Origin: a virus
Taxonomy: Duplodnaviria > Caudoviricetes
Direction: 5' to 3' (one strand)
DNA length: 64,000 nt
IMG/VR virus record: IMGVR_UViG_2756170261_000003
Span: 33,021 to 97,020 of that record
Each line of letters begins with the position of its first letter. Position 1 is the first letter of the stretch. Below the pieces are notes generated by a model. The model was not told the DNA's origin. It did no database searches and was given only the letters and a program-made list of their open reading frames with translations. Below are positions 12,305 to 63,581 of the stretch, piece by piece. The position numbers and the translations under genes were made by a program.

Positions 12305-12308
12305 TTGG

Positions 12309-15300
12309 TTAGGCTCCAGAAAGGGCGGCGCTGGCCGCTTTGGTCATCTGTGCGATGTAAGCGCGGGTAGCGTCAGCCCAAAGGGCCTCCATTTCCTGAT
12401 TACCGGCGTTTTCATTGCGAATGGCCTCAAGCTTCGCAGGTACGTCGCCGTCCAAAGCGTCCGTTTTTCCTTCAATCACAGCTTGAAGGAACGTTTTCGC
12501 CTGACCCTCTCCCGATGCTTCCGCCTGGGGTTCTGCCTGGGCCTCTGCGCGCGCGATCAGAAACGCGGCATAGTCCATGCCGGTCTTCGTGGTTTGCCGC
12601 TCTTCGAGGTATCGCCCGTCTTCCGCCTCCAAGCGTCGGCGGCCATCATGGGAAACGACCTTGTAGCCGTCAGCTACGCGGCTATCCACCAGCGATTTGC
12701 GCGTAATGACAGCCCCGGCACTCTTTACCTGCGCTACGAGCGCCAGCCTTGTCCTCTCGGCGTTCGCGGGCGTCATGCCGCTGGTGAATTCGGCAATCTC
12801 TGCGTTGACCTTATCGGCTTGCTCGGCTGCTCTGGCGTCTCTTTCTGCGCGAAGGCGTCGGGTCTCTTCGGCCTCCGCCTGCTCTGCCGCATATTCAGGC
12901 GTCAGTCGGTATTCGTCCGTCTTGATCGTGTCTTCTATATCGTCCACGCGATACCGGCGAACCTCGCCGCTGCCGTCTCCCCCAAGGGTCTCAACCTCAT
13001 ACATGTCTCCCGTGGGGTGCTGAATGCGCTGCGCAATACGCTGGCGGCCATACGTTGAATCCCACTCGCGGCCAATGTTGGGGTCTGCTGGCGTTTCGAT
13101 CATGGCAATGAGCCAGTCGATCATGCTGGGCGCATCGTCATCGGAATACATGGCCGTGATGCCGCTCGGCGTCTTCACGCGGTCGCCGCCATCCTCGCCC
13201 ACGAACACCATGGCCTTGCCGTCGCCGCCCATGTCGATTCGACCGATGACGTTGCCGCCCTTACGGATTTTGCCGACATACGACTGTTCGCCCGCCGAAT
13301 CCAGCGCAGCATCTGGCGTATGCTCTACGATTTCTTCCAACGGTTCGCCATCGGACGCGAAGGTCTGGCCTATCTCGCCTTCGTCAACGGCGAATTCGGC
13401 CAGAATGTCCATGGCTTCACGAATGCTTGCGGCAACGTCTTCCTCAAGCGCCGCCTGTTCGGCATTGCCCTCGGCGGCATTGATCGGCGCATTGTTCTCC
13501 ACCACATCGAGCGCGACTTGAAGCTGGGCCACGGCATGGCCCACATCGTCAAGGACGGTTCCGCCAAAGAATCCCCATTCGACGCTTGCGCCGTGGCGTT
13601 TGGCGGCTTCATCCATGACCCGTGCGGATTGGAATGGCGAATAGTCGGATTCATCCACCGAGGCGCTTAGCCAGGCCTTGAACTCCTTTGAGGCGTTCTC
13701 GAACTGGTAGGCGGCATCAACAGACGCCGCCTTTTCGGCGTCTTCGTCAACCGGGGCGGAAATGTCAGCGCCCACGGCTTCCAGCGCCTGGCGTAGGCCA
13801 CCAAAGATAGCGGCATCGCGGAAAAACGCATTGAAGGCCTTGGCGCGCGTAACGGTGCGCAAGGCGTTGCCATTTTTCATGCCGTACGTGGTCGCAGCGC
13901 CACGCTTGCTTGTGCCGATTTCTTGATAGCCTTCCGCAAACGCATCAATGACGAACTTCTGGCCAGTAACGATGCCGGAATCTGTTTGCACCTTCACGCT
14001 GTTCAGGAACGCCCATCCGTCCTTCACATTTTCAAGGTCTCGGCTCGCCTTGCGCTCGGCATCCTTGTTGGCTTGAATCTCTGCGCGCTGTTCAGGCGAT
14101 ATTCCTGCCCATTCGTCAATCTGGCGGGCGCGCTCTTTTTGGGTCTTGCCAAGCTTGATGCCGGTTGATCGGGCAAATACCTCTGCGCTGGCCTTGTTTC
14201 TGTCGCTACCAACACTGGCAAGAATTCGGCGCAGGTAATCCGCATCCTTGCCGTCAATGGCATTAACAAGGCGCATAATCCATTCGCTACGCCCGCCCAC
14301 CTCAATACCATGCTTTCGATATATGGCAATGGCGGCACCGGCCAGCGGCGCGTCATCAGGCAATGCGGCGAGTTCCGCCGCGCCCGCTTCCTGTAGCTTT
14401 TCCTTCGCAATTGCACGAAGGCGGTCAACCAATTCGCGATACGCCTGGTTGGCGGCGCTGTTGGCGGCGTATTCAGGGGTATCGTGCAAGATAGACAGGC
14501 GGGAATCCCATGACTTGATGCCGGCGGCCTCAAGTGCATCGCGCGCCCGGAATATGTAGCCGTCTTCGCCCCTCGGGTTTACGGCATCGCCCAAGCGGCG
14601 CTCTTCGGCCTTGGCCTGCTCTGAATCCGCAATCGCCTCAATATCTACCGAAGCCACCAGGGCGTTTATACGCTCGGCCTCTTTGCCCCATGCCTTGATG
14701 TAGGCATCAATAAGCGCCTGGTGCTCATTCTCGGGCGTGTCCGCTGGCGTTTCCTCGGTCTTTTCCCCGGCCGCTTCTGCCAGTTCGGCAAGCAAGGCAT
14801 CCGGGTCAATATCGGCAACGCTGGTGGTGTCTTCGGATACAGTGTAGCCAGCCGCGCGCATCCGATTCGCCGTCTCTTCGGCGTGTTGCGTGAGAACCTT
14901 TGCGGTTCCATCCGTCTGCTCTGCAAGCTCGCGCCAGGCATCTTCCCCGGCTTTCGTGTTCGCGTAGAACATCGTGAACATTCCGTCCACGGCCCGATAC
15001 GACAGATCCGTTTTGACCGGCGTTTCGGGCTGATCAAGTTTCAGCGTACCCGGAGCCGCAGCCGATTCTTTGGCCCACGCCTCGGTTTTCGCGTTGAACT
15101 CTTTCGCCGCCTCTGCTGCATCCTTATCGCGGCAATCCATATCGAATACGGTCTCCATGCCTGATTCCAGGGATAGATACCGCTGATTGCCGGAATTGAA
15201 CACGCCAAAGACAATGCGCGATCCGCCCGGATTCAGTTCGCCGCCGGCGGTAGCGCCCCCAACGTCCTTCTGAACCGACAGTTCGTTTTCTCGCGTCCAG

Positions 15301-16970
15301 CCGTGCGCCGTAACCAGCATGCCCAGTATTTGCACCGAGTAGTGCGGCTCTTCGATGGGCGCGAACGTCTGGTCGTTGCTGAAATCATGCTCACCAACCG
15401 CATACCTTGATGCATTGCCAGGCTTAAAGAAGTACGGCACGCCGTCTTTTTCGACGTACACGTTCTCCGCGCCCACTTCGTCAATGCGCGCCACGCCAAG
15501 CGCTTGCAATTTCTCTTGCGTGTCGATTTCGCTGGCCTTAGACCAGTCGATTGCCGGGGCCGCCGCCGGTTCCGGGTCTGCCCCCATGACGGCGCGCGCA
15601 GCATCCTGCGGGCTGCTCTGCTTGACCCATTCAGCATCCACGGCATCGGGATTGACCTCAATTGCGCCCTGCGCATCCGAACGGCTCATGCTCCAGCCGC
15701 TTTCAATGGCCTCAAGAACCGATTCCTCCCACACGACGCGGGCAGACCGGACGGGGCGGCTTTCGGCGGCGATCTTCGCCACTTCCAATTCCCGCTGCGC
15801 CTGGGTCAGCTCCGTTTCAAGCTGGGCGATTTCGGTTTTCAATCCCTCGATGGACTGCATGCGGTCGGCCCGTCGGGCGTTCGCGCGCGCGAAGGCCGCG
15901 CTGTTCTTTTCGGCCAGCTTCATGATGCGCCGCGCCACTTCCCGGACATTCAGATCATTGCCGCGCTCGGGGGCAACGACAATCGTTATGTCCTTTTTGT
16001 TCAGCATCCACTTCCACGACACCAGTTCATCGGTCGGGGCAATGCGCGTGGGCGTTACGTCCGGGTTATGGAAAAACACGGACACGGTTTGGCCGTCCGA
16101 AAGCTCGAACACGGCGGCCACGTTGGCCGTGCCGCGCTGCTTGAACGGCTCGGTAATCTGCAAGGCCGAAGGCTTCACGGTCTGGCCGGCGCGCTCCATG
16201 ACGCTGCGAATGATGTTCATCTGGCGCTCAAGGCGCTGGAACGGCACCACAAGCGCGTCCAGGGTCATGACGCTATCGGCATCGTCCATAATCTCGGCCA
16301 CGGTTACGGAGTCAAGCAACAGCCCGCCCGCGTCATTGCGGCGCACGTCATACAGAACGCGATCCAGAGTCACGCCCAGGGGGGCGGCGTTGTCATCCCA
16401 TTGAAGTTTGCGGTTCATGTCTTCTAGTCCTTCGAAAGGCAATTGGTCAGCCGATAGCGGGCGGCTCAAGTCGGAATTCTTGAGCCACCACTTGAATTGA
16501 GAAATTGAGCAAGGGATAAGGCTTTTCAGGCCCTTCCAGCCTTTGTCATAGCTACCCAGGTACGCATTGCGCGCAGCCTCTTCATCGGGGAAGGCAAGCA
16601 TGACCTTGTGTTCATCGAACCGGCCATCCCAATACTGGTTGATGACATAGACCATTTCGGACTGCGGGTAGTAGCCCACAAACACGTCCACGGCATCGCC
16701 ATCAGCGCCCTTGGTTCCGCCCACATACCCGTAATGGGCGGCCATGCGGCTTACCCAGCGCTTGCCGGCATCCGACACGCCGGTACGGTATGAGTTGCGC
16801 GGCTGTTCGATGACGATAGGCAGGCCGTAGAGCGTGAACCGGCCCATCTTGTAGTTGCCCGGCTTCTTTTGTGCGTCGGTCGGCTCAGGCAGCCGGTTAA
16901 CGCCGAAAGCGCCTTCATTTGAGGCGCTCTCGATGGTCAGGAATTGGGAGTCTGCGGGTGTCGTAGCCAT
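12309..16970 (-). CDS. darA: Polyvalent DarA-like protein: N-terminal InPase-like domain, DarA_N, variable middle, DarA_C
   Basis: 1553 aa; HYGY..GT.GADGD.VDVF...FDEHKVML (InPase-like); FELSDGQTVSVFFHNPD...WKWMLNKKDIT (DarA_N); TKTGMDYA.FL (DarA_C). Confidence 0.8.
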   Translation of the reverse strand: MATTPADSQFLTIESASNEGAFGVNRLPEPTDAQKKPGNYKMGRFTLYGLPIVIEQPRNSYRTGVSDAGKRWVSRMAAHYGYVGGTKGADGDAVDVFVGYYPQSEMVYVINQYWDGRFDEHKVMLAFPDEEAARNAYLGSYDKGWKGLKSLIPCSISQFKWWLKNSDLSRPLSADQLPFEGLEDMNRKLQWDDNAAPLGVTLDRVLYDVRRNDAGGLLLDSVTVAEIMDDADSVMTLDALVVPFQRLERQMNIIRSVMERAGQTVKPSALQITEPFKQRGTANVAAVFELSDGQTVSVFFHNPDVTPTRIAPTDELVSWKWMLNKKDITIVVAPERGNDLNVREVARRIMKLAEKNSAAFARANARRADRMQSIEGLKTEIAQLETELTQAQRELEVAKIAAESRPVRSARVVWEESVLEAIESGWSMSRSDAQGAIEVNPDAVDAEWVKQSSPQDAARAVMGADPEPAAAPAIDWSKASEIDTQEKLQALGVARIDEVGAENVYVEKDGVPYFFKPGNASRYAVGEHDFSNDQTFAPIEEPHYSVQILGMLVTAHGWTRENELSVQKDVGGATAGGELNPGGSRIVFGVFNSGNQRYLSLESGMETVFDMDCRDKDAAEAAKEFNAKTEAWAKESAAAPGTLKLDQPETPVKTDLSYRAVDGMFTMFYANTKAGEDAWRELAEQTDGTAKVLTQHAEETANRMRAAGYTVSEDTTSVADIDPDALLAELAEAAGEKTEETPADTPENEHQALIDAYIKAWGKEAERINALVASVDIEAIADSEQAKAEERRLGDAVNPRGEDGYIFRARDALEAAGIKSWDSRLSILHDTPEYAANSAANQAYRELVDRLRAIAKEKLQEAGAAELAALPDDAPLAGAAIAIYRKHGIEVGGRSEWIMRLVNAIDGKDADYLRRILASVGSDRNKASAEVFARSTGIKLGKTQKERARQIDEWAGISPEQRAEIQANKDAERKASRDLENVKDGWAFLNSVKVQTDSGIVTGQKFVIDAFAEGYQEIGTSKRGAATTYGMKNGNALRTVTRAKAFNAFFRDAAIFGGLRQALEAVGADISAPVDEDAEKAASVDAAYQFENASKEFKAWLSASVDESDYSPFQSARVMDEAAKRHGASVEWGFFGGTVLDDVGHAVAQLQVALDVVENNAPINAAEGNAEQAALEEDVAASIREAMDILAEFAVDEGEIGQTFASDGEPLEEIVEHTPDAALDSAGEQSYVGKIRKGGNVIGRIDMGGDGKAMVFVGEDGGDRVKTPSGITAMYSDDDAPSMIDWLIAMIETPADPNIGREWDSTYGRQRIAQRIQHPTGDMYEVETLGGDGSGEVRRYRVDDIEDTIKTDEYRLTPEYAAEQAEAEETRRLRAERDARAAEQADKVNAEIAEFTSGMTPANAERTRLALVAQVKSAGAVITRKSLVDSRVADGYKVVSHDGRRRLEAEDGRYLEERQTTKTGMDYAAFLIARAEAQAEPQAEASGEGQAKTFLQAVIEGKTDALDGDVPAKLEAIRNENAGNQEMEALWADATRAYIAQMTKAASAALSGA

Positions 16971-32437: not shown

Positions 32438-33323
32438 CCTCTACATCGCCATCAAACTTGATACCCAAGCGCTCCATGCGCCCCTCAACAACCCTGAACT
32501 CAACGTCTTCCGCCTCTTTCAGCGTCTTCGCATAAATCGCGTCAAGCTCTTCCTTGGGCGGGAAAATGTTGACGTTGATTTCTTCCTTAATCTCTACCTT
32601 GTCCTTCCACTGCTTGGGCTGACGGTTTTTCAGCCAAAAAATGGCCGCCGTGGTTTCGGGCGGGTAATGCTTGGTCGTCGGCGTGATGACAATCTCACTC
32701 ATGCCGTCGCCCACCGAAACCGTCCGAATGTCATCCTCGGGATGCGAGTAACCCAGCGCCCGCTTGTACAGGCTGTTGGCTACCTCGGAATCGGCCTTCA
32801 ACTTCCCGGCTTTTAGGGCCTCCACAAAATCAGGGTGCGCCAGCTTCCAATTGTTCAGCGTCGATACCGCTATCCCAAAGAAATCAGCCAGTTCTTCATC
32901 GGTAGCGCCGAGCAGGCATAGCTTGTAAACCTGCTCGGCATATGCGTCCTGATAAAGGGTGGGCCGTCCTACCGGATTCGGCTGGGTCGGTTCTTGTTCA
33001 GGCGCAGGACTATTCTGCGGAATGGTTTCGATGGTTTCCCTCACGGTTTCCGGTTTCGATTGAGAAACCTTAGAAACCTTCGATACCTTGGGGGATACCT
33101 TCCCCTTGGCCGGGGCCTTTTCGGGCGCTGGCGGGGCGCTGGGAGCCTGGGCGGCCCCTTTCTTAGCCCAGCTATCCCGTACCGCCGTCTTGCGAACCGC
33201 CGGGGCAGATACCGGCAAGTCCAACTCCCGCACCAGCCATGTGTAGCCATCCCGTGGGTCTGCCTCCCACGTATCGCGGATTTGCCCCCACTCTTCGGGG
33301 GAAAGCTTCGGTTTAGCTGCCAT
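32427..33323 (-). CDS. Terminase small subunit
   Basis: GRPTLY, GATDEELADFFG, LYKRALGY, AAIFWLKNRQP. Confidence 0.85.
   Translation of the reverse strand: MAAKPKLSPEEWGQIRDTWEADPRDGYTWLVRELDLPVSAPAVRKTAVRDSWAKKGAAQAPSAPPAPEKAPAKGKVSPKVSKVSKVSQSKPETVRETIETIPQNSPAPEQEPTQPNPVGRPTLYQDAYAEQVYKLCLLGATDEELADFFGIAVSTLNNWKLAHPDFVEALKAGKLKADSEVANSLYKRALGYSHPEDDIRTVSVGDGMSEIVITPTTKHYPPETTAAIFWLKNRQPKQWKDKVEIKEEINVNIFPPKEELDAIYAKTLKEAEDVEFRVVEGRMERLGIKFDGDVEDGD
33024..33100. repeat. Symmetric array of 4x GGTTTC followed by 4x GAWACCT inside terS (candidate pac)
   Basis: GGTTTC at 33024, 33033, 33045, 33052; GAWACCT at 33064, 33073, 33082, 33094. Confidence 0.6.
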
Positions 33324-37416: not shown

Positions 37417-38697
37417 TTATGAAATTTCAATGAACCGGCCCGGGTCAGCAGCTACTGACGCCGGGCCATCTTTTTGGTATTCGTTTGAGAACAGATCAAG
37501 CTGGGGCTGCGGCTGACCCTCCGCATCCAACAGGCTGCGCTGCAGGTAGGCGTACTCGATCCGGGCGCGCGCTATATCCAGATACCCAAGCGGTCTGCCC
37601 TGGTCGTCGCTATCCAGATCGAAGCCGATGAATTCAAAGCCTTCCAGAACGGCGGCCTTGCCGGTCGATCCGCTTCCCGTGAAAATGTCCAGCACCGTGC
37701 CGCCGGGCGGCGTTACGAGCCTGCACAGGTAGCGCATAAGGCTGGTGGGCTTGACGGTGGGGTGATTGTTCTTGACGGGCGCTGGCTTCCATCCGTCACG
37801 GCGGGTAATGTGCTGCCCGCTGGTGTTGCTGTTCATGCCGCCTTCGCGGTCTTGGATACCGTCGCACCCCTCATTCCTGTCCGCGCGGCTGGCCTTGGCG
37901 CTGTAGAAGAAACGGGCCGCAGTGCCGGTATCGCCATGAAACGCCCCGGCAACGCGCGCACGCTCGCCAGTAATCAGTCCGGTGCTGGCGGCGCTCGCCT
38001 CGGTTCCCTTGACGGGGGCGCTCGCCCCGCGCTCGCCGTATTGGGCGAAAGCCTCAAGCACCTCTTCGCTGCCGTCATGGATGATGTTCGCCGGCCAGCG
38101 GCCCAGGCTATGCGGCTGCGTAACGGTGCCACGCCCCCGGCATTCATCCTCATGACGACGCGGAAGGCCGCCGCTTCCTGTGTTCGGGCGCATTGCTTCC
38201 GCCGGCACGCGGCAAGCGTCAATATTCAGCGCCCCCGTGCCGTGCTCAAGAACATTGCCAGCCACGGTTCCATCAAGGGGCTTGCGTGCCACGCATATCG
38301 GCTCTTGCGCTGGCTTGAGCGCTGTTCCCCATCCAGCCCATTGCGCGGAATCCTCGCCCGACATGTCCTGTTCGGCGATGTTGCGCGACTTGGGGAAGCC
38401 GGAGCCGTACAGCCAGCCGATTTGGTCGCGAATCTCGAACCCAGCGTCTTCAATAGCGCACGCCATGCGGTGATACGTGCGCGTTCCGCTGAACGCAAGC
38501 AAGTGGCCGCCGGGTTTCAGCACGCGCAGGCTTTCGCGCCAAACCTCGACGTTGTAGGCGATGCCGCTGCTATCCCACCCCTTGCCCATAAAGCCAAGCT
38601 CGTAAGGGGGGTCGGTGACAACGCTATCGACGCTTTCATCGGGCAGGGTCTTCAACAGATCCAGGCAGTGGCCGCGCTCTAACCTGTACGGCCTCAT
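37417..38697 (-). CDS. DNA N4/N6 methyltransferase (beta class)
   Basis: VTDPPY, HPTVKP, VLDIFTGSGSTG. Confidence 0.9.
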   Translation of the reverse strand: MRPYRLERGHCLDLLKTLPDESVDSVVTDPPYELGFMGKGWDSSGIAYNVEVWRESLRVLKPGGHLLAFSGTRTYHRMACAIEDAGFEIRDQIGWLYGSGFPKSRNIAEQDMSGEDSAQWAGWGTALKPAQEPICVARKPLDGTVAGNVLEHGTGALNIDACRVPAEAMRPNTGSGGLPRRHEDECRGRGTVTQPHSLGRWPANIIHDGSEEVLEAFAQYGERGASAPVKGTEASAASTGLITGERARVAGAFHGDTGTAARFFYSAKASRADRNEGCDGIQDREGGMNSNTSGQHITRRDGWKPAPVKNNHPTVKPTSLMRYLCRLVTPPGGTVLDIFTGSGSTGKAAVLEGFEFIGFDLDSDDQGRPLGYLDIARARIEYAYLQRSLLDAEGQPQPQLDLFSNEYQKDGPASVAADPGRFIEIS

Positions 38698-52315: not shown

Positions 52316-53452
52316 ATGTGGTTCAAAAATCTGAAAGTATTCCGCCTGTCCAACTGGACGCTATCCGCCGACGAACTGGCCGAACGGCTCGAAAAAGCCG
52401 CCCACAAGCCCATTGGCGCGAGCGAAATGCAAAGCACCGGCTGGGTTCAGCCGCGCGACGGCGAGGGTTTCGTGCATGCCCTGGACGGCCAGCTTCTGAT
52501 CAGCCTGCGGGCGGAGCAAAAGCTGTTGCCAGCATCGGTGGTCAATCAGGTTGCCAAGGCCAAGGCCCAGGAAATCGAAGAGCAGCAGGGATACAAGCCT
52601 GGCCGCAAGCAGATGAAGGAAATCAAGGAGCAAGTCACTGACGAACTGCTACCCAAGGCTTTCAGTTCGTACCGCGACACGCGCGCCTGGATCGACACGA
52701 AAAACCGCTGGCTTGTCATTGACGCATCCTCTTCGACCAAAAGCGACGAAGTGTTGGGCATGCTGGCAAAGGCCATTGATCCCTTCCCCGTGACACCGCT
52801 TTACGTCGAACAATCGCCCGCCGCCGCTATGACGAACTGGCTGATTGACGACGAAGCGCCCGCCAATTTCAGCATTGACCAAGACAGCGAACTTAGCTCC
52901 ACCAGCGAAAGCCGCGCCGCCGTGCGCTATGTGCGCCAAAGCATTGAAATTGACGATGTACGCAAGCACGTACAGGCCGGAAAGCAATGCACGCGCCTGG
53001 CGCTGACCTGGGCCGACCGAGTTTCGTTCGTGCTGACCGAGGGGCTGGACATTAAGCGCGTGACGCCCCTGGACGTGCTGCGCGAGAATCAGGACAGCGC
53101 GGCACAGAACGAAGTCGAACAGTTCGATTCCGACTTTACGCTCATGACCGGCGAACTGGCCCGCCTGATTGCATCCCTCGTTGAAGCGCTGGGCGGCGAA
53201 AAGGCTACCGACACGCCAGCGGCCACCGTTACAAGCGAAAGCATCGGCGACCCTGACGATGAACCCTATCAGTTGGCCGTCAATGTCGTTCTGGAAAACA
53301 AGGTTGCGTCCATTTCTGCCATTCAACGGCACTTGGCTATCGGATACAACCAGGCAGCCCGGCACCTTGAGCGAATGGAGAGGGACGGCATCGTTTCTGC
53401 AATGGAACCGAACGGCCACCGTGAAATCCTTTGGGCGAACGCGCCGGCATGA
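52316..53452 (+). CDS. rdgC: RdgC fused to C-terminal FtsK-gamma domain
   Basis: [20 protein letters not shown]; tail [29 protein letters not shown]. Confidence 0.9.
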
Positions 53453-53895
53453 AGAAAAAGCGCAGGGATAAGAAATACACCCCGCGCATCGCCAGAATCC
53501 CGATCACCAAGCTACGCGACGACATAGCCCTGATCATCCACACAAGCATCGTAAGGCTGGCCGCCGGGCCAGACCTCGATGCTTACGACAACCTCGCCGA
53601 AAACATCAATCTGGTGGGCATTGCCTTGGAGGGCAAGCCCGCGTTTTCGCGCGAGTTCGCCCTGATCGCTGGCGGCGCGCGGGCAATGAACCAAATCGGC
53701 GAGTTAGTGACCGCCGGCCACACCCCAAAGCCACACCACATAGCGCCGATCCGCGTTGCGGTCAACACGATTGACGCCGTGCTGGGCAGGCTGGACGTGG
53801 AAACGCTCTACGTGGCCGAACTGGCCGCACACGCCGCCATGCGGCAAGGATATGAAGATGCAAAAAAAGCAATTCCTGCTACCAATAGCCAGTGA
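53449..53895 (+). CDS. Hypothetical protein
   Basis: [13 protein letters not shown] start, coupled to rdgC. Confidence 0.65.
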
Positions 53896-55771
53896 AATCA
53901 CGGTTGACCTGTTCGCCGGCGGCGGCGGCTGGAGTAGCGCTTATGAACTGGCCACCGGGCAGCATGTTCATGTGGCCGTCAACCACGACCCCGATGCAAT
54001 CAGCATGCATGAGGTCAATCACCCCCAGGCCAAGCACTACAAGGCGGACGTTTTCGAGGTTTGCCCGCACGAAGCCACGGGAGGCATGCCGGTAGGCTGG
54101 CTGCACCTTTCGCCAGACTGCACCCACCACAGCCAGGCCAAGGGCGGACAGCCCCGAGACCGCAAGATACGGGCGCTGGCCTGGGTTGGCGCGCGCTGGG
54201 CCGGACAAGTCCGCCCCCGCATCATCAGCCTCGAAAACGTCAAGCAAATCCTGAACTGGGGTTCGCTGGTGGCGAAGCGCGACAAGGCCACCGGACGGGT
54301 ATTGAAGCTGGACGGCACCGTGGCAGAAAAAGGCGAGCGCGTTCCACTTGACCAGCAATTCCTGATCCCCGACCCCAAAAAGGCCGGGCAGACGTGGAAG
54401 AGGTTCGTGTCCGTGCTGCGAAATATGGGCTACACGGTCGAATGGCGGCGTCTTGTGGCCGCCGACTATGGCGCTCCGACCACGCGCGACCGGCTGTTCC
54501 TCATGGCGCGGTGCGACGGCATGCCGATTGAATGGCCCTTGGCTACCCACTTCGAGAATCCCAAGCGCGGGCAATTGAAATGGCGTTCTGCAGCCGAGTG
54601 CATCGACTGGTCTATTGAAGGCAAGTCCATCTTCAACCGAAAAAGGCCATTGGCGGAAGCCACCATGCGCCGCGTCGCCCGTGGCGTCGAGCGGTACGTC
54701 ATCAACAACGCCAAGCCCTTCATCGTTCCCGTGACGCACCAGGGCCAAGTCAGGGTTCACAACATCGACGCGCCACTGAAAACTGTAACCGGGGCGAATC
54801 GCGGCGAACTCATGCTTGGAACGCCGGTACTGGTTCAGACCGGCTACGGCGAACGCGACGGACAGGCCCCGCGCTCACTGGACATGCAAAAGCCGCTGGG
54901 AACTGTCGTGGCGGGCGGAACAAAGCATGCCGTGGCAATGCCGATCCTGATCCAGGCCGCGCACGGCGATGGAAAGCCCGGCGGCGTACAGCGCTGGGGA
55001 TCTGGCGTAAAGGACATTCAAGGCCCGCTCAACACCATCACAGCAACAGGAAGCGGGGGCCAGGCAGTCGCTACCGCTTTCCTTGCGCAGATGAACGGCG
55101 GGTTCAACAATACGCCAGGACATTCGGCAGAGCGCCCAATGACGACCGTCACGAACACGGGCAGCCAGCAGCAGCTTGTCACGGCACACCTTGCCCACCT
55201 TCGCGGCAATTGCGACGCCAGAGACGTTGACGAACCGCTGCACACCATCAGCGCCGGCGGCCAGCATCACGCCACAGTAACCGCCTTCCTTACCAGGCAG
55301 TTTGGGAATAGCACCGGGCAAAAGCTGGATGATCCGGCTCCGACCGTAGTGGCAGGTGGCGGCGGAAAAACGGCCCTCACTGAATGCGTGCTGTCTAAAG
55401 ATGACGAAGCCGGCGCGCTGCGCGTGGCCGCCTTCCTGATCCGGTATTACAGCGAAGGCGGCCAATGGGGAGACTTGCGCGACCCTATCGACACAATCAC
55501 TACCCGCGACAGGCTGGCGCTTGTCACGGTGTACATCAAGGGTACGCCCTATGTGATTGTCGATATAAAGCTGCGCATGCTTGAGCCGCGAGAACTCTAC
55601 GCGGCCCAGGGCTTCCACCCCGACTACATCATCACTCACGGCCATGACGGGCGCAAGTTCTCGAAGTCGGCCCAGGTCAAGATGGTTGGCAACAGCGTAA
55701 GCCCGCACCCGGCCCGGGCGCTCATTGAAGCGAACTGGAAGACAAACGAGCCAATGAGGTTGGTAGCATGA
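53858..55771 (+). CDS. DNA C5-cytosine methyltransferase
   Basis: DLFAGGGG, SPDC, LENV, R.RLF, GNSV; internal PLxTVT repeats. Confidence 0.92.
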   Translation: MQKKQFLLPIASEITVDLFAGGGGWSSAYELATGQHVHVAVNHDPDAISMHEVNHPQAKHYKADVFEVCPHEATGGMPVGWLHLSPDCTHHSQAKGGQPRDRKIRALAWVGARWAGQVRPRIISLENVKQILNWGSLVAKRDKATGRVLKLDGTVAEKGERVPLDQQFLIPDPKKAGQTWKRFVSVLRNMGYTVEWRRLVAADYGAPTTRDRLFLMARCDGMPIEWPLATHFENPKRGQLKWRSAAECIDWSIEGKSIFNRKRPLAEATMRRVARGVERYVINNAKPFIVPVTHQGQVRVHNIDAPLKTVTGANRGELMLGTPVLVQTGYGERDGQAPRSLDMQKPLGTVVAGGTKHAVAMPILIQAAHGDGKPGGVQRWGSGVKDIQGPLNTITATGSGGQAVATAFLAQMNGGFNNTPGHSAERPMTTVTNTGSQQQLVTAHLAHLRGNCDARDVDEPLHTISAGGQHHATVTAFLTRQFGNSTGQKLDDPAPTVVAGGGGKTALTECVLSKDDEAGALRVAAFLIRYYSEGGQWGDLRDPIDTITTRDRLALVTVYIKGTPYVIVDIKLRMLEPRELYAAQGFHPDYIITHGHDGRKFSKSAQVKMVGNSVSPHPARALIEANWKTNEPMRLVA

Positions 55772-55998
55772 GCGGGCAATCCAAGAAAGGCAGCGCCATC
55801 GAGGCGATTTTCAATGTGCTGGTGGGATACACCATCAACGTGGTTGCGAATTTCGCCATCTTCCCCCTGTTCGGATGGGATATATCCCTTGAGCAAAACC
55901 TGCTGATGGGAACGTTCTACACCGCCATATCACTGGCGCGCTCGTACTGCCTGCGGCGGGCATTCAACCGCTTCGGGCTGCGACGTGGGGGGGGGTAG
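55768..55998 (+). CDS. Small membrane protein
   Basis: Two hydrophobic helices; RSY.LRR.FN. Confidence 0.7.
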   Translation: MSGQSKKGSAIEAIFNVLVGYTINVVANFAIFPLFGWDISLEQNLLMGTFYTAISLARSYCLRRAFNRFGLRRGGG

Positions 55999-56841
55999 AT
56001 GACGGCAACCCGCCCAATACTTCGATACCACGGCGGGAAGTGGCGGCTGGCTCCCTGGATCATCGGCCATTTCCCTGACCACAAGGTCTACACGGAAGCG
56101 TTTGGCGGCGGCGGTTCCGTGCTTTTAAAGAAATCAAGGTCATACGCGGAGGTCTACAACGACCTTGATGGCGAAGTCGTCAATTTATTCAGAGTCATGC
56201 GCGACAACGGCGACGAACTGCGCGCCAAGCTGGAACTGACGCCGTTTTCTCGGGATGAATTTTCCCTGTCTTACGAGCCGAGCTCGAGCAGCATTGAGCA
56301 GGCAAGGCGCACCGTAGTCCGCTCATTTATGGGCTTCGGATCATCCGCCATCAGCAAACAATCAACTGGGTTTCGGGCCAATAGCTCACGCTCCTACACC
56401 ACGCCAGCGCATGACTGGGCGAACTACCCGGACGCGGCCAAGGCCATCGTTGACAGGCTCCGGGGCGTGACTATTGAAAACCGCGACGCCCTGGCGATCA
56501 TCAAGCAGCATGACGCGGATTTCACGCTGCATTACGTTGATCCGCCATATCCACACAGCACACGCACCAACGGCGCATCGGACGATGTATCGCAGTACCG
56601 ATACGAAATGACGGACGAGCAGCACCGCGAGTTGGCGGCACTGCTTCATTCGGTCAAGGGCATGGTGGTTCTTTCTGGCTACCCATGTGACCTGTACGAC
56701 AAAGACCTCTACCCAGGCTGGAAGCGAATTGCCCGCAAGGCGTTCGCGGACGGCGCGCGAGAGCGCACAGAGGTTATCTGGCTTAACGACGCCTGCGCAA
56801 GCGGGCTAAATCAGCACGACTTATTTAGGAGAATTGCATGA
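55999..56841 (+). CDS. DNA adenine methyltransferase (Dam/D12 class)
   Basis: YHGGK, EAFGGGGSV, YNDLD, DPPY. Confidence 0.92.
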   Translation: MTATRPILRYHGGKWRLAPWIIGHFPDHKVYTEAFGGGGSVLLKKSRSYAEVYNDLDGEVVNLFRVMRDNGDELRAKLELTPFSRDEFSLSYEPSSSSIEQARRTVVRSFMGFGSSAISKQSTGFRANSSRSYTTPAHDWANYPDAAKAIVDRLRGVTIENRDALAIIKQHDADFTLHYVDPPYPHSTRTNGASDDVSQYRYEMTDEQHRELAALLHSVKGMVVLSGYPCDLYDKDLYPGWKRIARKAFADGARERTEVIWLNDACASGLNQHDLFRRIA

Positions 56842-58037
56842 GCAACACAGCTACCCCGGTTGACAGCATCAAGAACAAGGTTTCCACCTTCATCGAACTG
56901 ATGGCCGAAGCCGCCCAGGCCGGGTACTGCGGATCATCGCTTGAAATCAAGAACACCGATGGCCGCCTGAACCTTCGTTTCACGTACTGCGCGCCGCTGG
57001 ATATTCTGCATGCGGCAGAGGTCAACGGAACGCCCAGCACCATCCTGGGCGTGGCCCTGGTGAAGGCCGGCAAAGGCTACGAATGGCAGCGCATCGACGC
57101 CAACGGCAACAAGGCAGACAACCCGGGCAAGGCGTTTTTCGACGCGCACCCGGTATTCGGGCAAATCAAGGACGTTCAGATTGACGGGCAACACATGGTT
57201 GTGGTGCCGCGTTTCTACGTCAAGCGCGCCCGCCTTGCGACCGGCCCCTACGCTGGCAGCCAGGCATGGTTCATCAGCGAAACGGAGCAGCCCGGATTTG
57301 CCCCTCACTCTGCCTTCAAGACCGCCGGCCAGCCGGACAAGGGCTTTTATGTCGGGAAATATCAGGCCAGCCTGTGCGACAAGAAGCTGGCCTCATTGCC
57401 TGACACCGTGCCAGCCGTGGGCTTGAGCCTGAACAAGTTCCACGCATGCGCCGTGTCGCGCAATGATACGGTTGGTGAAGATGGCTGGATGCAATGGATC
57501 GCCTACCAGCTTGCGGCCATCCAGTGGCTGTATCTCATTGAAAACGCCTCCATGGACTCCATAAGCACTACCGGGCGCGGGCGGATTGATGAAAGCAGCA
57601 AGGCCAAAGTGGACGCCAGCGACGTAACCCAGGCCTCGTACCGTGGCATTACTGGGCTTTGGGGCAATGTCTGGCAATGGCTTGGCGGGCTGAAACTGGT
57701 TGACGGGGTTGTGCATGTTGCCGATCCGGCCAACCCCAGGGCATGGATCAATACCGGCCACACGCCCCCGTACGACGAATACTACGCAACCGAGTTTGCC
57801 GAAGGCGAGCATATCGGCGACCTGTTCATTGCCAGCAAGAGCGTCGATTACCAGTCGCAGGCGGCGACACCGAGCATCCACTACTACCGCGAAAGCACAG
57901 GCGAGTTTTTCTCGCTTGTGGGCGGGACTTGGACGAGCGCGTCCACTGCGGGGCTGTGGTGCCTGCACCTCGGCAACCCCGCGTCCAACTCGAACACGGC
58001 CGTCGGCGCTCGCCTCGCGAAGCGTTTTGTGTCTTGA
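56838..58037 (+). CDS. Mtd/FGE-sulfatase (C-type lectin fold) protein, DGR target-like
   Basis: FYVGKYQAS, YRGITGLWGNVWQW, C-terminal VGG.W...S.AGLW.L.L....S.S...VGARLAK. Confidence 0.8.
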   Translation: MSNTATPVDSIKNKVSTFIELMAEAAQAGYCGSSLEIKNTDGRLNLRFTYCAPLDILHAAEVNGTPSTILGVALVKAGKGYEWQRIDANGNKADNPGKAFFDAHPVFGQIKDVQIDGQHMVVVPRFYVKRARLATGPYAGSQAWFISETEQPGFAPHSAFKTAGQPDKGFYVGKYQASLCDKKLASLPDTVPAVGLSLNKFHACAVSRNDTVGEDGWMQWIAYQLAAIQWLYLIENASMDSISTTGRGRIDESSKAKVDASDVTQASYRGITGLWGNVWQWLGGLKLVDGVVHVADPANPRAWINTGHTPPYDEYYATEFAEGEHIGDLFIASKSVDYQSQAATPSIHYYRESTGEFFSLVGGTWTSASTAGLWCLHLGNPASNSNTAVGARLAKRFVS

Positions 58038-58074
58038 AACTTGCGTTGTGATGCAACGGGCGATAGCCCGTTGC
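57915..58074 (+). other. Putative DGR variable region, GC-rich 3' end and hairpin
   Basis: NNY codons at the predicted variable sites; GCAACGGGC-GATA-GCCCGTTGC at 58053-58074. Confidence 0.6.
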
Positions 58075-58099
58075 TCACCGCATTTTTTCACCCATCCCA

Positions 58100-58591
58100 A
58101 TGAAAGAATATTCAATCCGCCTGCCGGGCGACATAGTGCGCTCCATCATCGACGGCGACCGCACCAGCCTGATTCATCCCGCCGCGCCGCCGGCACTTAA
58201 ATGCCCGTTCGGCCAGGTGGGCCAGCCCATTTGGGTGAAAGAAACCTACACCCCCATGCATGAGGGCGTAACCACCCGGGAGGGCATCGCGTACCGCGCC
58301 GATTTTCTGGACGATCCGCACGGCCCCGATGGCGAGCTTTCCCGGGAGGGCAAGTACCGATTCTGGAAGCCATCTTCGACCATGCCGAAGTGGGCCAGCC
58401 GCCTCATTCTGTACCCGACCCGAATCCGCGCCATGACTTTGAGCGCCGTCGCCAAGGAAGACGGATACGGGGAAGACCTCATTTCACCCGAACCCAAAAT
58501 ACCGCCCACCGGCTCCCTATTCGAGAGCGAACCCGAGGATGACCCGCTGGTTTGGGCGGTCGATTTCACCAAGGAACTACTAAAGCCATGA
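58100..58591 (+). CDS. ASCH/PUA-like phage protein
   Basis: CPFGQVGQPIWVKET, WKPS..MPKWASR, P.VWAVDF. Confidence 0.7.
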   Translation: MKEYSIRLPGDIVRSIIDGDRTSLIHPAAPPALKCPFGQVGQPIWVKETYTPMHEGVTTREGIAYRADFLDDPHGPDGELSREGKYRFWKPSSTMPKWASRLILYPTRIRAMTLSAVAKEDGYGEDLISPEPKIPPTGSLFESEPEDDPLVWAVDFTKELLKP

Positions 58592-58983
58592 GCAAAAGCA
58601 AATTTCACGCCATCACAATATCCGCCGGCCAAATCCTGAAAGAGGTTTGCCACACCGCATCGGTGGATGCCGGATGGTGGCAAGACCGCGACGGGAAGCC
58701 ACTCACTGACAACCCGTACTGTTTCAGCAACAAGCTGATGCTGTCCGTATCGGAACTGTCCGAGGCCATGGAAGGCGACCGCAAGGGCCTCATGGATGAC
58801 CACTTGCCGCACCGCCCCATGCGAGAGGTTGAACTGGCCGACGCCGTTATTCGCATCTTCGATCTGGCCGGGGCCTACGAACTGGACATTGCCGGGGCCA
58901 TTGCTGAAAAGCTGGCCTACAACCAGCAGCGCGCTGACCACAAGCCCGAGAATCGCGCCAAGGTCGGCGGCAAGTCCTACTGA
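58588..58983 (+). CDS. MazG-like NTP pyrophosphohydrolase
   Basis: SELSEAMEGDRK...EVELADAVIRIFDL...EKLAYN. Confidence 0.8.
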   Translation: MSKSKFHAITISAGQILKEVCHTASVDAGWWQDRDGKPLTDNPYCFSNKLMLSVSELSEAMEGDRKGLMDDHLPHRPMREVELADAVIRIFDLAGAYELDIAGAIAEKLAYNQQRADHKPENRAKVGGKSY

Positions 58984-59060
58984 TCATGCGGTTTCCATTC
59001 AACCAGACCACCATAACCCAGCGCGCGCAACGCGCGTATTTGCAGAAGGCAGAGAAAGCC

Positions 59061-59414
59061 ATGAATCAAGTTTTATCCCGAGCCGAGGCGAAGGCCGCCG
59101 ACCCCGTGGACATTGCCCGCGCAGACCCGAACTACAACAGCCTGCGCGACGTGCTGGACGCCGCCTTGCTGCAGGCCCAGGGCGGCAAAGGTGCCGAGCG
59201 CCACGCCAAGGGCGATCCGTTCGAAAGCCAGCGCATGCAGTCCATATCCCGCCTGCTGGGTTCGGAACGAGGCATGGCCTATCAGGCATGCAAGAAAGTG
59301 GCCGAGGGCCTTGATCTTCCGACCCACCAGGCGCGCGTGAAGGAACTGCTGGGCGCGATCAACTACATCGCCGGCATCGTGATTTATCTGGAAGCCGACC
59401 AGAAAGGAGATTGA
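59061..59414 (+). CDS. All-alpha hypothetical phage protein
   Basis: GKGAERHA, QACKK..E, ELLGAINY. Confidence 0.65.
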   Translation: MNQVLSRAEAKAADPVDIARADPNYNSLRDVLDAALLQAQGGKGAERHAKGDPFESQRMQSISRLLGSERGMAYQACKKVAEGLDLPTHQARVKELLGAINYIAGIVIYLEADQKGD

Positions 59415-59415
59415 T

Positions 59416-60738
59416 ATGCCAACCGATAACAAGGAACTGCGCCTGTCTGCGCCCGCGCAAGTGGGCGGCATCCGATTCGGCGTCAATGTCGCTTGGCGCA
59501 CGGTAATTGAGGCGGCGCAGCGCCATTACAAATACATGATGGAGCCGGAGCGCGAAGAGGCGCGTATCAAGGTCGCTGGCGAGTTCGTGAAAAGGCTACG
59601 TGAGTCCGCAACAGCATATGCGCCCCCGATCACTCCCCAGGAATCGGATGCACGGGAGCTTCAAGCAGCCCGCGACATGCTTGAATCCGCCCGACAGGAG
59701 CTGCGGGAGATTCGCGCGGCGCTAGGTGTTTCGTATGAGCCTCACCAGAACCTGCACGAACGAACCCTTGACGCCGCCCGGCGCGGCGCGCCTGATGGCG
59801 ATATTGTGGACAGCCAAGAGCGGATACTTGACGCGGCCAAGCATTGGGCGGAACAGCGAGACATTGGCCCGGCGCATGCAAAAGCGGCATGGGCGGACTT
59901 TCAGCTACGTGTTCAGGCGGAATTGAACTACACCCATGCCATCGCATCAGATCCACAGGAAGAGGTGGGCGAAGAGCGCCGCGACGAGCACCCCGATGAT
60001 GTTGCCGTGCAAGCCTTCGCCCAGGCAATGAAGTCCAAACTGGCAAAGAAGCGCGCCGATGGGCGCGGCGGCTGGCAACAATGCGACGCCAACACCCTGT
60101 CATCCATGCTTTCCGATCACGTCGCAAAGGGCGATCCCGTTGACGTGGCGAACCTTGCCATGATGCTGCACCAAAACGGGCAGTCGATTTGCCGCACCAG
60201 CGATTTTTCAGAAGGCGTGAATATCGAAAGGTTGCGCCGCGCTATGGCCGCGCAAGGCATTGCCGCGCCGGAATCTCTGGAAGAGTTGGCCGCCACCCTG
60301 GCTAGGCACGTCAACGCACTGACACTGGCGATTGCCGAGAAAAAGCACAAGTGCGACGGCAACCACGGCGGCCCACGCTGCGCAGACCCTGAATGCTGGA
60401 ACGACAGCCCGGCTGATCCGATGTTCTGGTACCGCCCGCGATCTGACGGCGGGTATGAGGGGCCGCTGCACAACTCAAGCATTGAAGAAGTGCGCAAGCG
60501 GTCTGGCGCATGGGTTCCGCTGTTCGCTGGTCGCGCGCCAGGAACAGCGCCAGACAGCGGCACTGACTCCCTGAAATCCGCGCTGCGGCCTTTCTCGGAA
60601 GAATTCAAGCAGTGGGATGGCGTCGGCTGCTGGGATTCCATGACGCTTGATGAAATGTTCAGCCACGCACCAGGGGAAACCGCCGGCATAACCTTCGCGG
60701 ACTTGAGACGCGCCAACGAGCTACTGGAGAAATCATGA
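59416..60738 (+). CDS. Mosaic early protein containing a KGDPVDVAN domain
   Basis: HPDD.AV..F..AMK.KL...R..GRGGW...KGDPVDVAN.AMM. Confidence 0.7.
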   Translation: MPTDNKELRLSAPAQVGGIRFGVNVAWRTVIEAAQRHYKYMMEPEREEARIKVAGEFVKRLRESATAYAPPITPQESDARELQAARDMLESARQELREIRAALGVSYEPHQNLHERTLDAARRGAPDGDIVDSQERILDAAKHWAEQRDIGPAHAKAAWADFQLRVQAELNYTHAIASDPQEEVGEERRDEHPDDVAVQAFAQAMKSKLAKKRADGRGGWQQCDANTLSSMLSDHVAKGDPVDVANLAMMLHQNGQSICRTSDFSEGVNIERLRRAMAAQGIAAPESLEELAATLARHVNALTLAIAEKKHKCDGNHGGPRCADPECWNDSPADPMFWYRPRSDGGYEGPLHNSSIEEVRKRSGAWVPLFAGRAPGTAPDSGTDSLKSALRPFSEEFKQWDGVGCWDSMTLDEMFSHAPGETAGITFADLRRANELLEKS

Positions 60739-61441: not shown

Positions 61442-61728
61442 AAAATTCAGACAGAAACCACCTCCGACGCCTGCTTGGCTGGGTGCGCTGCGAGATAGGT
61501 CAATCACCGGACGAGTTGGTGGCAACGGTTAAATCCATAGCGCCCGCTATCGGTGACATTGACGACGCCGCCAAGCGCCGCATGGTCGAAGCCCATGACA
61601 AGGCCCGGAATGTTCCGATCTATGTCCGCCAGGCCGTCAAGCAACTGGATAGATATGTAAACAAAATCGGGGAGGTGGTCGATTCCCCGGAACTGGGCCG
61701 GATAGCGCCGCCGGAGAAAGAAAAATGA
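61438..61728 (+). CDS. Hypothetical protein
   Basis: ATGA-coupled. Confidence 0.6.
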   Translation: MKNSDRNHLRRLLGWVRCEIGQSPDELVATVKSIAPAIGDIDDAAKRRMVEAHDKARNVPIYVRQAVKQLDRYVNKIGEVVDSPELGRIAPPEKEK

Positions 61729-62075
61729 TCAACACCAATTTTCTGAAACACCAAATCGGGAATGCCCTGCGCGCGAACAAGGAGATTCAAGACACCCTCA
61801 AATGCCTTGAATCTCTGGTGGACAGCATCCGACCCGACGATATGGCCGCCGTCATTATTGAAATGCAGCGCCTGCTCATGCCGCTGGGGCTGTGCATCAT
61901 CCACAGACACACCCTGGCGGACATTGCCACCATCGTCACATACGCCGAAGAAATGGATGAAGAGGGCTTGAGCACTACCGAACTGGCGCAAATATCCGAG
62001 CGAGTTGAAAAATCGCTGCGGCCGGAATTCCCCGAAGCCCTGTTGACGCAACCAAGAAAACAAGGAACAGCATGA
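61725..62075 (+). CDS. Hypothetical protein
   Basis: ATGA-coupled. Confidence 0.6.
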   Translation: MINTNFLKHQIGNALRANKEIQDTLKCLESLVDSIRPDDMAAVIIEMQRLLMPLGLCIIHRHTLADIATIVTYAEEMDEEGLSTTELAQISERVEKSLRPEFPEALLTQPRKQGTA

Positions 62076-62497
62076 AAAACAATCCCCAAACGCTGCACGT
62101 AATGCGCAGCGATGCCGACGCCATGAACGCCCGCACCGAGGTGGTTCTGGCCGCCGTGGACGGCGCAATCGCCTTCGGACGGCTCAATGTCAACCAGCCG
62201 CCCAGCGGCACGCACTGGCTGGCGCGATTCTGGAACATGGGCCGAAAGCTGGCCGAACTGGAAGGCGAAAAGCAACCGCCTGCCGAAGAATGCGCAGCCA
62301 CCGGGCAGGGCTGCTCAACCGGCCCCCATGGGCCAAACGGTGAAGAGCAATGCCGGTACTGCGGCGAAGAGTCAGACGCCGAGGCCGCATGCCGGGAAGC
62401 CTACGACAACACCTATCACAAGGTGCCGGCTGAAATCAGCTACGACCGCTGGCGCTACGTCTGGATGAAGGCCCGCGAATCGCTGGCCAGGAAGTAG
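62072..62497 (+). CDS. Hypothetical protein
   Basis: ATGA-coupled; Cys motif. Confidence 0.6.
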   Translation: MKNNPQTLHVMRSDADAMNARTEVVLAAVDGAIAFGRLNVNQPPSGTHWLARFWNMGRKLAELEGEKQPPAEECAATGQGCSTGPHGPNGEEQCRYCGEESDAEAACREAYDNTYHKVPAEISYDRWRYVWMKARESLARK

Positions 62498-62501
62498 CGA
62501 C

Positions 62502-62798
62502 ATGGCGGACAGCAACAAAAAACACTATCCGAGGCTGTACCGCGAAGAATTCGAGCTGGCCCGCGCAACCCTTTCCCCGCGCAAGGGCGCGCTGGAATGG
62601 AGCCGGGCCGACTACGAGGCATTCACCTATGTGGAGCCAGGCGTTCGGCTGGTTTTCTACCCGCACCGCACCAGCGCCGGGAATTACCACATTCGAATCC
62701 GCGACAGCAACAGCAAAGACGCCGCGCTGGCCGACCGGCTCATGCGAGAACTGGACAAGGCAGCGGGATACAACCGCACATTCAGCAGGAAAATGTAA
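62502..62798 (+). CDS. Hypothetical protein
   Basis: LVFYPHRTSAGNYHIRIRD. Confidence 0.6.
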   Translation: MADSNKKHYPRLYREEFELARATLSPRKGALEWSRADYEAFTYVEPGVRLVFYPHRTSAGNYHIRIRDSNSKDAALADRLMRELDKAAGYNRTFSRKM

Positions 62799-63214
62799 TG
62801 GAACAAACAACGAAAGCAGCGCTGGTCGCGCCAGACTGCTATAGCCTGAACGGCGAAGATTATCACCACGGGGGTATTGGCGATGCCCTGGATAGCATGG
62901 CAAGCGACGAGGGAGGCTTGGTAGTCGGGCGCGTGTACTGGCTCGCGGTATCCAAATCCCCAAAGCCATCCAGTTTTTTCAACGTCGATACACTGCTCGA
63001 AGACATACAGTGCCGGGCCTGCGACGAAGGCGGGGAATACGCGGAAGATTTCCTAACCGACCTGCCTGACGAAAAGGCAGAGGAACTACGCGCCCTGGTG
63101 TCAAACTGGCTTGATGCCAATGTCACGGTTGGGTTTTTCACCGTGACAAACGCCACTGAACAGACAGTCACGCCCGAGGACATTAAGGAAATGGAGTGCG
63201 CCAATGGAAAATAG
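62798..63214 (+). CDS. Acidic hypothetical protein
   Basis: TAATG overlap; start at MEQTT. Confidence 0.6.
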   Translation: MEQTTKAALVAPDCYSLNGEDYHHGGIGDALDSMASDEGGLVVGRVYWLAVSKSPKPSSFFNVDTLLEDIQCRACDEGGEYAEDFLTDLPDEKAEELRALVSNWLDANVTVGFFTVTNATEQTVTPEDIKEMECANGK

Positions 63215-63581
63215 CATCACGCCCGGCAGCACCTTCGAAGTCGCCTATCCGTTTGTTCGCTGCGAGGTTGAAGTCATGACAGATGACGGCCTGAACACCA
63301 TCCAAAGCTGGAAGCCGGGCCACCAAGAGGATGAATACGGCGAACCGTTCGCTCACGGCGAAGGGAAGATGATTCTCGATGTGGTGGACGTGTTCCAGCC
63401 AGGCCTGCGCACCGACATACCCGGATACCCGCACAAGAAGTACCCAAAGCGGGTTTTCTACCTGCGGCGGTTCGTGACGCCGGACGGGGTTGAGTTCGGC
63501 AAGACCGGCCTGCGGATAGCTACGGAAGCGGTATTCAAGCGGATTGCCGGCGGCTACATGCATGAATACGAGGTGGCCTGA
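63204..63581 (+). CDS. Hypothetical protein
   Basis: GGAG RBS, 125 aa. Confidence 0.6.
   Translation: MENSITPGSTFEVAYPFVRCEVEVMTDDGLNTIQSWKPGHQEDEYGEPFAHGEGKMILDVVDVFQPGLRTDIPGYPHKKYPKRVFYLRRFVTPDGVEFGKTGLRIATEAVFKRIAGGYMHEYEVA

Follow-up and report, generated by a model that had tools for sequence, protein, structure and literature searches.

In the diversity-generating retroelement (DGR) of Bordetella phage BPP-1, which is ordered mtd-avd-TR-brt, sequence is transferred from a template repeat (TR) to a variable repeat (VR) with changes specific to adenines, and the system includes a GC-rich initiation of mutagenic homing (IMH) element, a hairpin downstream of it, and a cassette encoding Avd and a reverse transcriptase (RT). 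To act as a recipient, a VR must have the IMH, TR homology upstream, and a hairpin whose size and distance are suitable, and these elements are enough to make a target of a heterologous gene; the consensus hairpin is located 4-34 bp from the VR and has a stem of 7-10 bp and a GRNA loop (Guo et al. 2011, PMC3240598). That the avd-TR-RT of BPP-1 can act in trans from a plasmid is established, as cited in PMC5758913. Here we analyze a gene at 56838..58037 (plus strand) of the window, a 64,000-nucleotide stretch corresponding to positions 33,021 to 97,020 of the IMG/VR virus record IMGVR_UViG_2756170261_000003. This intact open reading frame (ORF) encodes a 399-aa stand-alone variable protein with a predicted C-type lectin (CLec) fold and, from the comparison of its sequence with the rest of the genome, is very probably the second, non-adjacent target of the single DGR of a ~79-kb prophage, whose cassette is ordered fibre(VR1)-avd-TR-RT. 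The adenine-specific transfer, the GC-rich IMH, the downstream hairpin, and the Avd and RT cassette of BPP-1 recur in this DGR, whereas BPP-1 has a single target, adjacent to its cassette.

Non-adjacent DGR targets in prophages, and a nonstructural target located among methyltransferases, have already been published (Wu et al. 2018, NAR 46:11, PMC5758913; Benler et al. 2021, Microbiome 9:78, PMC8008677). Wu et al. found non-adjacent targets, assigned by adenine-only differences from TR, in 45 of 372 DGRs. "Many examples" paired an adjacent with a non-adjacent target inside a single prophage, and the distance to the RT was almost always 50 kb or less. The variable repeat of the gene described here (VR2) is 65 kb off in the integrated map, just beyond this usual range, and ~14 kb off in the excised circle; that survey did not address gene context or function. 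In Quimbyvirus, a distal second target on the opposite strand lies among four methyltransferases and a nuclease, and a role in phage-host conflict has already been proposed for it (Benler et al. 2021). Compared by description, Quimbyvirus ("Quimbyviridae," ~75 kb) resembles our locus in having one DGR with two lectin-fold targets, one beside tail genes and the other distal, encoded on the opposite strand and surrounded by nucleases and by methyltransferases for both adenine and cytosine. It differs in being a Bacteroides phage of a Bacteroidota host, while the host here is a proteobacterium and the RT has relatives from Alcaligenaceae; moreover, our RT is a single ORF rather than a frameshifted one, and the paralogy between our second target and the fibre tip is clear. 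A tblastn search of the target against a phage collection returned weak matches below 35% identity, none of them named Quimbyvirus. One DGR likewise serves "large" and "small" paralogous targets in the Faecalibacterium phages Lelie and CP11, for which the function was stated to be unclear (Gulyaeva et al. 2024, PMC11792537), but those targets belong to the DUF6273 family and to phages of Firmicutes. We found no functional study of such second DGR targets in the literature. New here are the proteobacterial lineage, the proof from co-variation between TR and VR2, and a recurrent pattern of long and short target forms across P2-like, Mu-like, and P1/lambda-like phages.

The second variable repeat and its distant template

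When the 3' end of the target gene was used to search the complete assembly, two further copies were identified, both on the same contig (C2) and on its minus strand, 7.0-7.5 kb to the left of window position 1. These copies lie in a cassette at C2:257-261 kb, where the minus strand carries an 857-aa fibre-like ORF with one copy (VR1) at its end, followed by avd, the 121-nt TR (C2:258343-258463, ~7.4 kb left of the window), and the RT gene. Avd matches PF22296 (78.7 bits), and the RT matches PF00078 at 74-76 bits and contains the YMDD and LPVGALTSQ motifs typical of DGR RTs. Inside the 64-kb window, neither the repeat search nor a profile search with PF00078 detected an RT or a second TR-like copy. 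An original prediction, made from the window alone, had anticipated both outcomes, namely that the window held no RT or template and that these would lie to the left of its first position; what it had called an "orphan" target is instead one of two in an ordinary two-target DGR of one prophage, ~14 kb from TR once the circle is excised. The longest RT frame (470 aa, L011 11123-12535, minus strand) extends upstream through TR, and public gene calls give a 344-aa RT starting after TR. In the genome as a whole, PF00078 matches only C2:257341-257943 and a second RT on contig C15, a 1.8-kb contig with a 479-aa open frame (locus L009; RVT_1, 132.6 bits, C15:510-1130, minus strand). This second RT probably belongs to a group II intron or to a retroelement of another kind, and it is unrelated to the DGR.

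Aligned to TR, VR2 spans 121 nt (57901..58021, plus strand), and these final ~120 nt of the ORF encode a protein end reading ...EFFSLVGGTWTSASTAGLWCLHLGNPASNSNTAVGARLAK. TR contains 25 adenines, and all 10 differences between TR and VR2 fall on them, as do all nine differences between TR and VR1. The TR-VR2 pattern is far beyond chance, for which the expectation is about 0.21^10. A target diversified at a distance had been proposed from the window alone, together with a template copy differing almost only at adenines; the copy was found, and the adenine-only differences and the RT/TR cassette 65 kb away bear the proposal out. Relative to TR, the changed codons of VR2 are CTT (I>L), ACT, AGC, ACT, CAC, GGC, GCC, and GTC (I>V), and three other AAC codons of TR stay unchanged. 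The eleven variable codons originally predicted were thus partly right: ACT, AGC, ACT, CAC, GGC, and GCC had changed, while TGC and CCC, which TR also has, are not variable, and the two variable Ile codons had been missed.

At its 3' end, VR2 has a GC-rich element, the IMH core GTCGGCGCTCGCCTCGCG (58002..58019, plus strand), which an alignment of TR, VR1, and VR2 shows to be common to all three. Beyond CGCGAA, TR departs from VR1 and VR2, which remain similar, giving the pattern of IMH versus IMH*. This divergence covers the ~31-nt spacer (58020-58052, plus strand), where VR1 and VR2 are alike and TR (IMH*) is not. The spacer leads to a hairpin or cruciform, GCAACGGGC / GATA / GCCCGTTGC (58053..58074, plus strand), which begins 31 nt past the last base of VR2 that matches TR and has a perfect GC-rich stem of 9 bp. 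A variable C-terminus with a GC-rich end and a 9-bp GATA hairpin had been read from the window by the first analysis, and it stands. When the region was folded as single-stranded DNA, it was far more stable than shuffled sequences (z = -4.9), and among homologous genes a GC-rich hairpin with GNNA or 3-nt loops follows the IMH core at a distance of ~30 nt in 20 short forms and 11 long forms of the family described below. The hairpin of VR1, GGGGCGGGC-GAAA-GCCCGCTCC (L011 12864-12885, minus strand), starts 25 nt after the fibre stop codon and lies inside the avd coding sequence, because the GTG start of avd is only 1 nt after that stop.

A hairpin located just after a stop codon could also be a plain intrinsic terminator, an alternative that the first analysis had left standing and that a TTTTTT run downstream would favour. 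That run starts 9 nt after the stem, which is too far, so a scan for the intrinsic-terminator consensus did not call the hairpin terminator-like; furthermore, the GATA loop fits the GRNA consensus (PMC3240598), and the same type of hairpin recurs at the same ~30-nt spacing after VR1, inside avd, and after every homologous VR. We therefore consider it very unlikely that the hairpin is a terminator instead of a DGR recognition element; it fits an element for target recognition, although the two roles are not mutually exclusive.

By analogy with BPP-1, TR RNA would be reverse-transcribed by the DGR RT together with Avd, misincorporation would occur opposite adenines only, and the GC-rich IMH and the GRNA-loop hairpin that follows it would guide the resulting cDNA to VR2, which it would replace. 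Because VR2 has an IMH, a suitable hairpin, and upstream TR homology, this mechanism follows established knowledge. The diversification of VR2 by the DGR is strongly supported by the sequence comparisons.

Natural variation bears on the same question. A 399-aa relative (P0001) differs from the target protein at 8 residues, all in the VR, and its contig (L017, from the bioreactor metagenome SRR24770527) has the gene order of the window. Over the 7.4 kb from 52603 to 60000 of the window, the two differ at 20 nt, of which 18 fall at 57927-57994 in VR2. When the VR2 of L017 is compared with the TR of the window genome, six differences are at non-adenines. We recovered the RT contig of the same sample (L101) via the RT protein cluster; it begins inside TR, and its TR differs from that of the window genome at positions 49, 61, 62, and 79 (G>T, C>T, C>T, and C>T). 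The VR2 of L017 carries exactly these four changes, the VR2 of the window carries none of the four, and the VR1 of sample SRR24770527 also has the change at position 79. Since the four non-A changes of TR co-vary with VR2, we conclude that in each phage VR2 receives its sequence from the TR of that same phage. This co-variation is an unusually direct sequence-only proof of DGR action across 65 kb of prophage.

Two points weigh against this reading. The remaining non-A differences in the VR2 of L017 are at positions 33 and 34, and the TR recovered from SRR24770527 lacks its first 36 nt, where both would lie; polymorphism of TR is expected to be their source. In addition, retrohoming into VR2 is deduced from the comparison of sequences. 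The four sequencing runs compared consist of assembled contigs, so that the comparison captures between-sample differences only. Runs X1 and X2 are identical to the window DNA and, because they are probably its source, we excluded them as independent support.

The similarity between the window and L017 changes to the right of ~60.0 kb, where identity falls from 98.8% to 86% (window 61725-63570 against L017 8132-9983). Of the differences, 79 are found at 60000-60738, and the sequences suggest a recombination breakpoint in or beside a 440-aa ORF at 59416-60738.

The variable protein and its long and short relatives

Residues 72-395 of the target protein are a paralogue of the tail-fibre tip, their counterpart being residues 529-856 of the 857-aa fibre (49% identity), and residues 1-71 form a lineage-specific N-terminus. 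No Pfam family was assigned to the 399-aa protein, and the best PHROG was PHROG 5302, "tail protein" (1e-40). For the N-terminal ~70 residues, no relatives were detectable outside the family in Pfam or, using the N-terminal 72 residues, in the ESM Atlas, which gave no usable match. The sole sequence match in the PDB was TaqVP (phmmer, 1e-8). An AlphaFold (AF2) model built from 44 homologues had a pLDDT of 89.7, with the N-terminal 70 residues modelled at lower confidence as a helix and a beta-hairpin. Foldseek searches with this model again gave TaqVP (5vf4) as the best match (E 1e-15, TM 0.51), followed by weaker matches to Mtd (1e-4), TvpA (5e-4), FGE, and PvdO. On the basis of the model, the protein is assigned the FGE-type CLec fold of DGR variable proteins, with the VR at its C-terminus.

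TaqVP, the variable protein of a Thermus aquaticus prophage DGR (PDB 5VF4), is a monomeric stand-alone protein (PMC6328139), and it is similar to our target in size (381 aa), in its FGE-type CLec fold, and in having the VR at the C-terminus; unlike our target, its gene directly adjoins avd-TR-RT, and the two proteins share only ~18% identity. The target had originally been described as Mtd-like, a description that we would revise, since TaqVP is the closest solved relative. The match to Mtd is weak (Foldseek E 1e-4, TM 0.3, rmsd 18), with only the CLec part aligning, and the target has neither the N-terminal beta-prism and beta-sandwich trimerisation domains of Mtd nor its position in the tail module beside avd, from which it is 65 kb away. 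Inspection of the protein detected no signal peptide, lipobox, or hydrophobic helix.

Outside the VR, the gene is under purifying selection. Relative to a homologue with 85% aa identity (L102), residues 1-70 had a dN/dS of 0.15 and residues 71-354 one of 0.14, compared with 1.19 inside the VR and 0.07-0.09 in the flanking genes. Because of this purifying selection, we conclude that the gene, its odd N-terminus included, is functional. Among 60 related genomes, no homologue of the target query was found, which indicates only that the prophage is sporadic.

Scanning IMG/VR with an alignment of the family yielded 80 loci, which split cleanly into long and short forms. The long forms are ~840-870 aa, and most are directly followed by avd and RT; the short forms are 322-400 aa and, with one exception, have no avd or RT within 10 kb. 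In the exception (L065; IMGVR_UViG_3300042566_001051, 75 kb), avd-TR-RT is encoded on the opposite strand only ~7 kb downstream of the short form; the contig, which may be circularly permuted, has the matching long form (L077) at its other end. On four other phage contigs that contain both forms, the mismatches between the VR of the short form and the TR of that contig fall at adenines in 12/12, 11/13, 9/9, and 13/13 cases.

All short forms with identified neighbours, which come from three phage types, are co-directional with their neighbours in an early or accessory operon. In 60-79-kb phages, they adjoin SSB, RecE, exonuclease, C5 methyltransferase, or ASCH; in three P2-like phages, they follow a Toprim primase and precede SSB and the integrase; and in a Mu-like phage, the short form comes directly after Mu Gam. 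When the shared module was analysed by maximum likelihood without the VR, the resulting tree required at least three changes between long and short forms and contained two deep, well-supported clades of short forms. In this tree, the short form of the window genome groups with the P2-like and Mu-like short forms (100/99), apart from its own fibre.

Prophage setting and neighbouring genes

The target gene and the cassette belong to one temperate myovirus prophage of ~79 kb, at about C2:250.65-329.97 kb. To the left of the cassette are lysis genes (holin and amidase) and a tyrosine integrase, and to the right of the window are an insertion sequence (IS) fragment and then host genes such as TetR and O-methyltransferase. 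A transposase fragment with an rve_3 integrase core is present at the right prophage boundary (L012 166-624, plus strand). A 16-bp direct repeat, CCGGCCCCGGGCACCA, occurs at C2:250654 (L011 4655-4670), ~110 bp upstream of the integrase gene, and at C2:329953 (L012 66-81), and it is a candidate att core; this candidate pair would therefore delimit a prophage of 79.3 kb. Although the repeat ends in CCA like the 3' end of a tRNA, ARAGORN found no tRNA at the candidate site. In the integrated map, VR2 and TR are 65.3 kb apart on opposite strands, and across the att junction of the excised circle they are ~13.7 kb apart.

The structural genes are on the minus strand (1-40.6 kb of the window and leftwards), and the cassette is at the far end of this late operon. 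Within the window, the minus-strand segment includes a replication loader, TerL, a tail sheath, a portal, and a P1 DarB-like methylase/helicase of 2202 aa. This last protein, a methyltransferase/helicase with matches to DarB-like antirestriction proteins, adjoins another of 1553 aa, which has matches of lysozyme-like and "released upon infection" type (5696-16970, minus strand), and the pair looks like a virion-borne anti-restriction system of the P1 Dar type.

From 41.2 kb, the plus strand forms a lambda-pL-like early operon with, in order, a CI-like repressor, RecT, RecE, SSB, RusA, exonuclease, a C5 methyltransferase, a D12 methyltransferase, and the target gene, followed by a phrog_874 protein, MazG, two genes of unknown function, and ASCH. 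Pfam and PHROG matches thus place the target in a recombination and methylase operon, in agreement with the early position assigned to it in the original prediction. The C5-cytosine DNA methyltransferase (53882..55771, plus strand) matches PF00145 (6e-23), and the D12-class N6-adenine DNA methyltransferase immediately upstream of the target (55999..56841, plus strand) matches PF02086 (1.3e-20). As read from the sequence, the target has a ribosome-binding site, AGGAG (56827-31), 6 nt upstream of its ATG start (56838-40), which overlaps the TGA stop of the D12 methyltransferase gene in an ATGA (the whole element spanning 56827..56841, plus strand). Downstream, PHROG matches identify the phrog_874 protein (58100-58591, plus strand) and, as the second neighbour, a MazG-like pyrophosphatase (ending at 58983, plus strand). 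Within 9 kb of the target there are, accordingly, C5 and D12 methyltransferases, RecE/RecT, exonuclease, MazG, and ASCH. The prophage contains at least four DNA methyltransferase genes or domains (37417-38697, minus; 53882-55771, plus; 55999-56841, plus; and 5696-12304, minus), which is a heavy investment in restriction evasion.

Possible roles of the hypervariable protein

As to what VR2 diversification serves, we tentatively suggest, at somewhat less than an even chance, that the target protein is a hypervariable binder that takes part in phage-host conflict within the cell, during infection or lysogeny, and not a receptor-binding protein of the virion. An intracellular and possibly anti-defence binder had also been suggested by the first analysis, and a comparable role had been proposed earlier for the Quimbyvirus target (PMC8008677). 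Pointing to this are an early-operon context kept in three phage types, the lack of a shaft or anchor domain and of an export signal, the coupling to a methyltransferase gene, and a neighbourhood rich in genes of counter-defence type. Weighing against it, both the PHROG "tail protein" match of the 399-aa protein and its paralogy to the fibre tip are equally compatible with a role in the virion.

A possible but rather unlikely explanation is that the protein is a second receptor-binding protein or adhesin, carried by the virion and encoded far from the tail module, whose diversification gives a second, independent receptor specificity. Its 49% identity to the fibre tip and the match to PHROG 5302 would fit such a role, stand-alone proteins of ~380 aa (Mtd and TaqVP) are DGR targets in other phages, and doubled host-range adaptation has been proposed for paired Mtd-like targets (Gulyaeva et al., PMC11792537). 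However, the shaft and anchor that form the N-terminal 528 aa of the fibre are absent from the target protein, some members of the family (322-328 aa) have no N-terminal extension at all, the target gene is translationally coupled to a methyltransferase gene, and the short forms with identified neighbours, in three unrelated phage types, are all in early or accessory operons and never in the tail module. To roles other than an intracellular binder or a virion adhesin we give a similarly low probability.

That the gene is a fibre-tip duplicate in decay, functionless and passively mutagenised via a leftover IMH and hairpin, we regard as scarcely credible: the tree does derive short forms from long forms, but the reading frame is intact, dN/dS is low in both N-terminus and body (0.14-0.15 against the 85%-identical relative), the short-form clades across P2-like, Mu-like, and ~75-kb phages are deep and well supported, and neither frequent frameshifts or stops among natural alleles nor a dN/dS near 1 outside the VR was seen.

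Returning to an intracellular binder, a broader and more speculative proposal, which we hold to be doubtful, is that the short forms are widespread, early-expressed cytoplasmic "phage antibodies." These would be stand-alone lectin-fold binders, derived at least twice from fibre tips, that temperate phages of Proteobacteria (P2-like, Mu-like, and ~75-kb) have since acquired as accessory genes; kept hypervariable by the DGR of the resident tail fibre, they would bind and neutralise variable defence proteins of the host or of rival phages or exclude superinfecting phages from the lysogen.

The locus is suited to testing these possibilities. The host looks like a cultivable proteobacterium, and the two runs identical to the window DNA are labelled single-organism and not metagenome; both targets and one TR are in a single prophage, with natural alleles that differ only in VR2; and homologues are present in P2-like and Mu-like phages, which are genetically tractable. 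The biology of DGRs is known almost only from receptor-binding tail proteins, and a hypervariable protein encoded among early genes hints at a second, intracellular use of targeted hypermutation.

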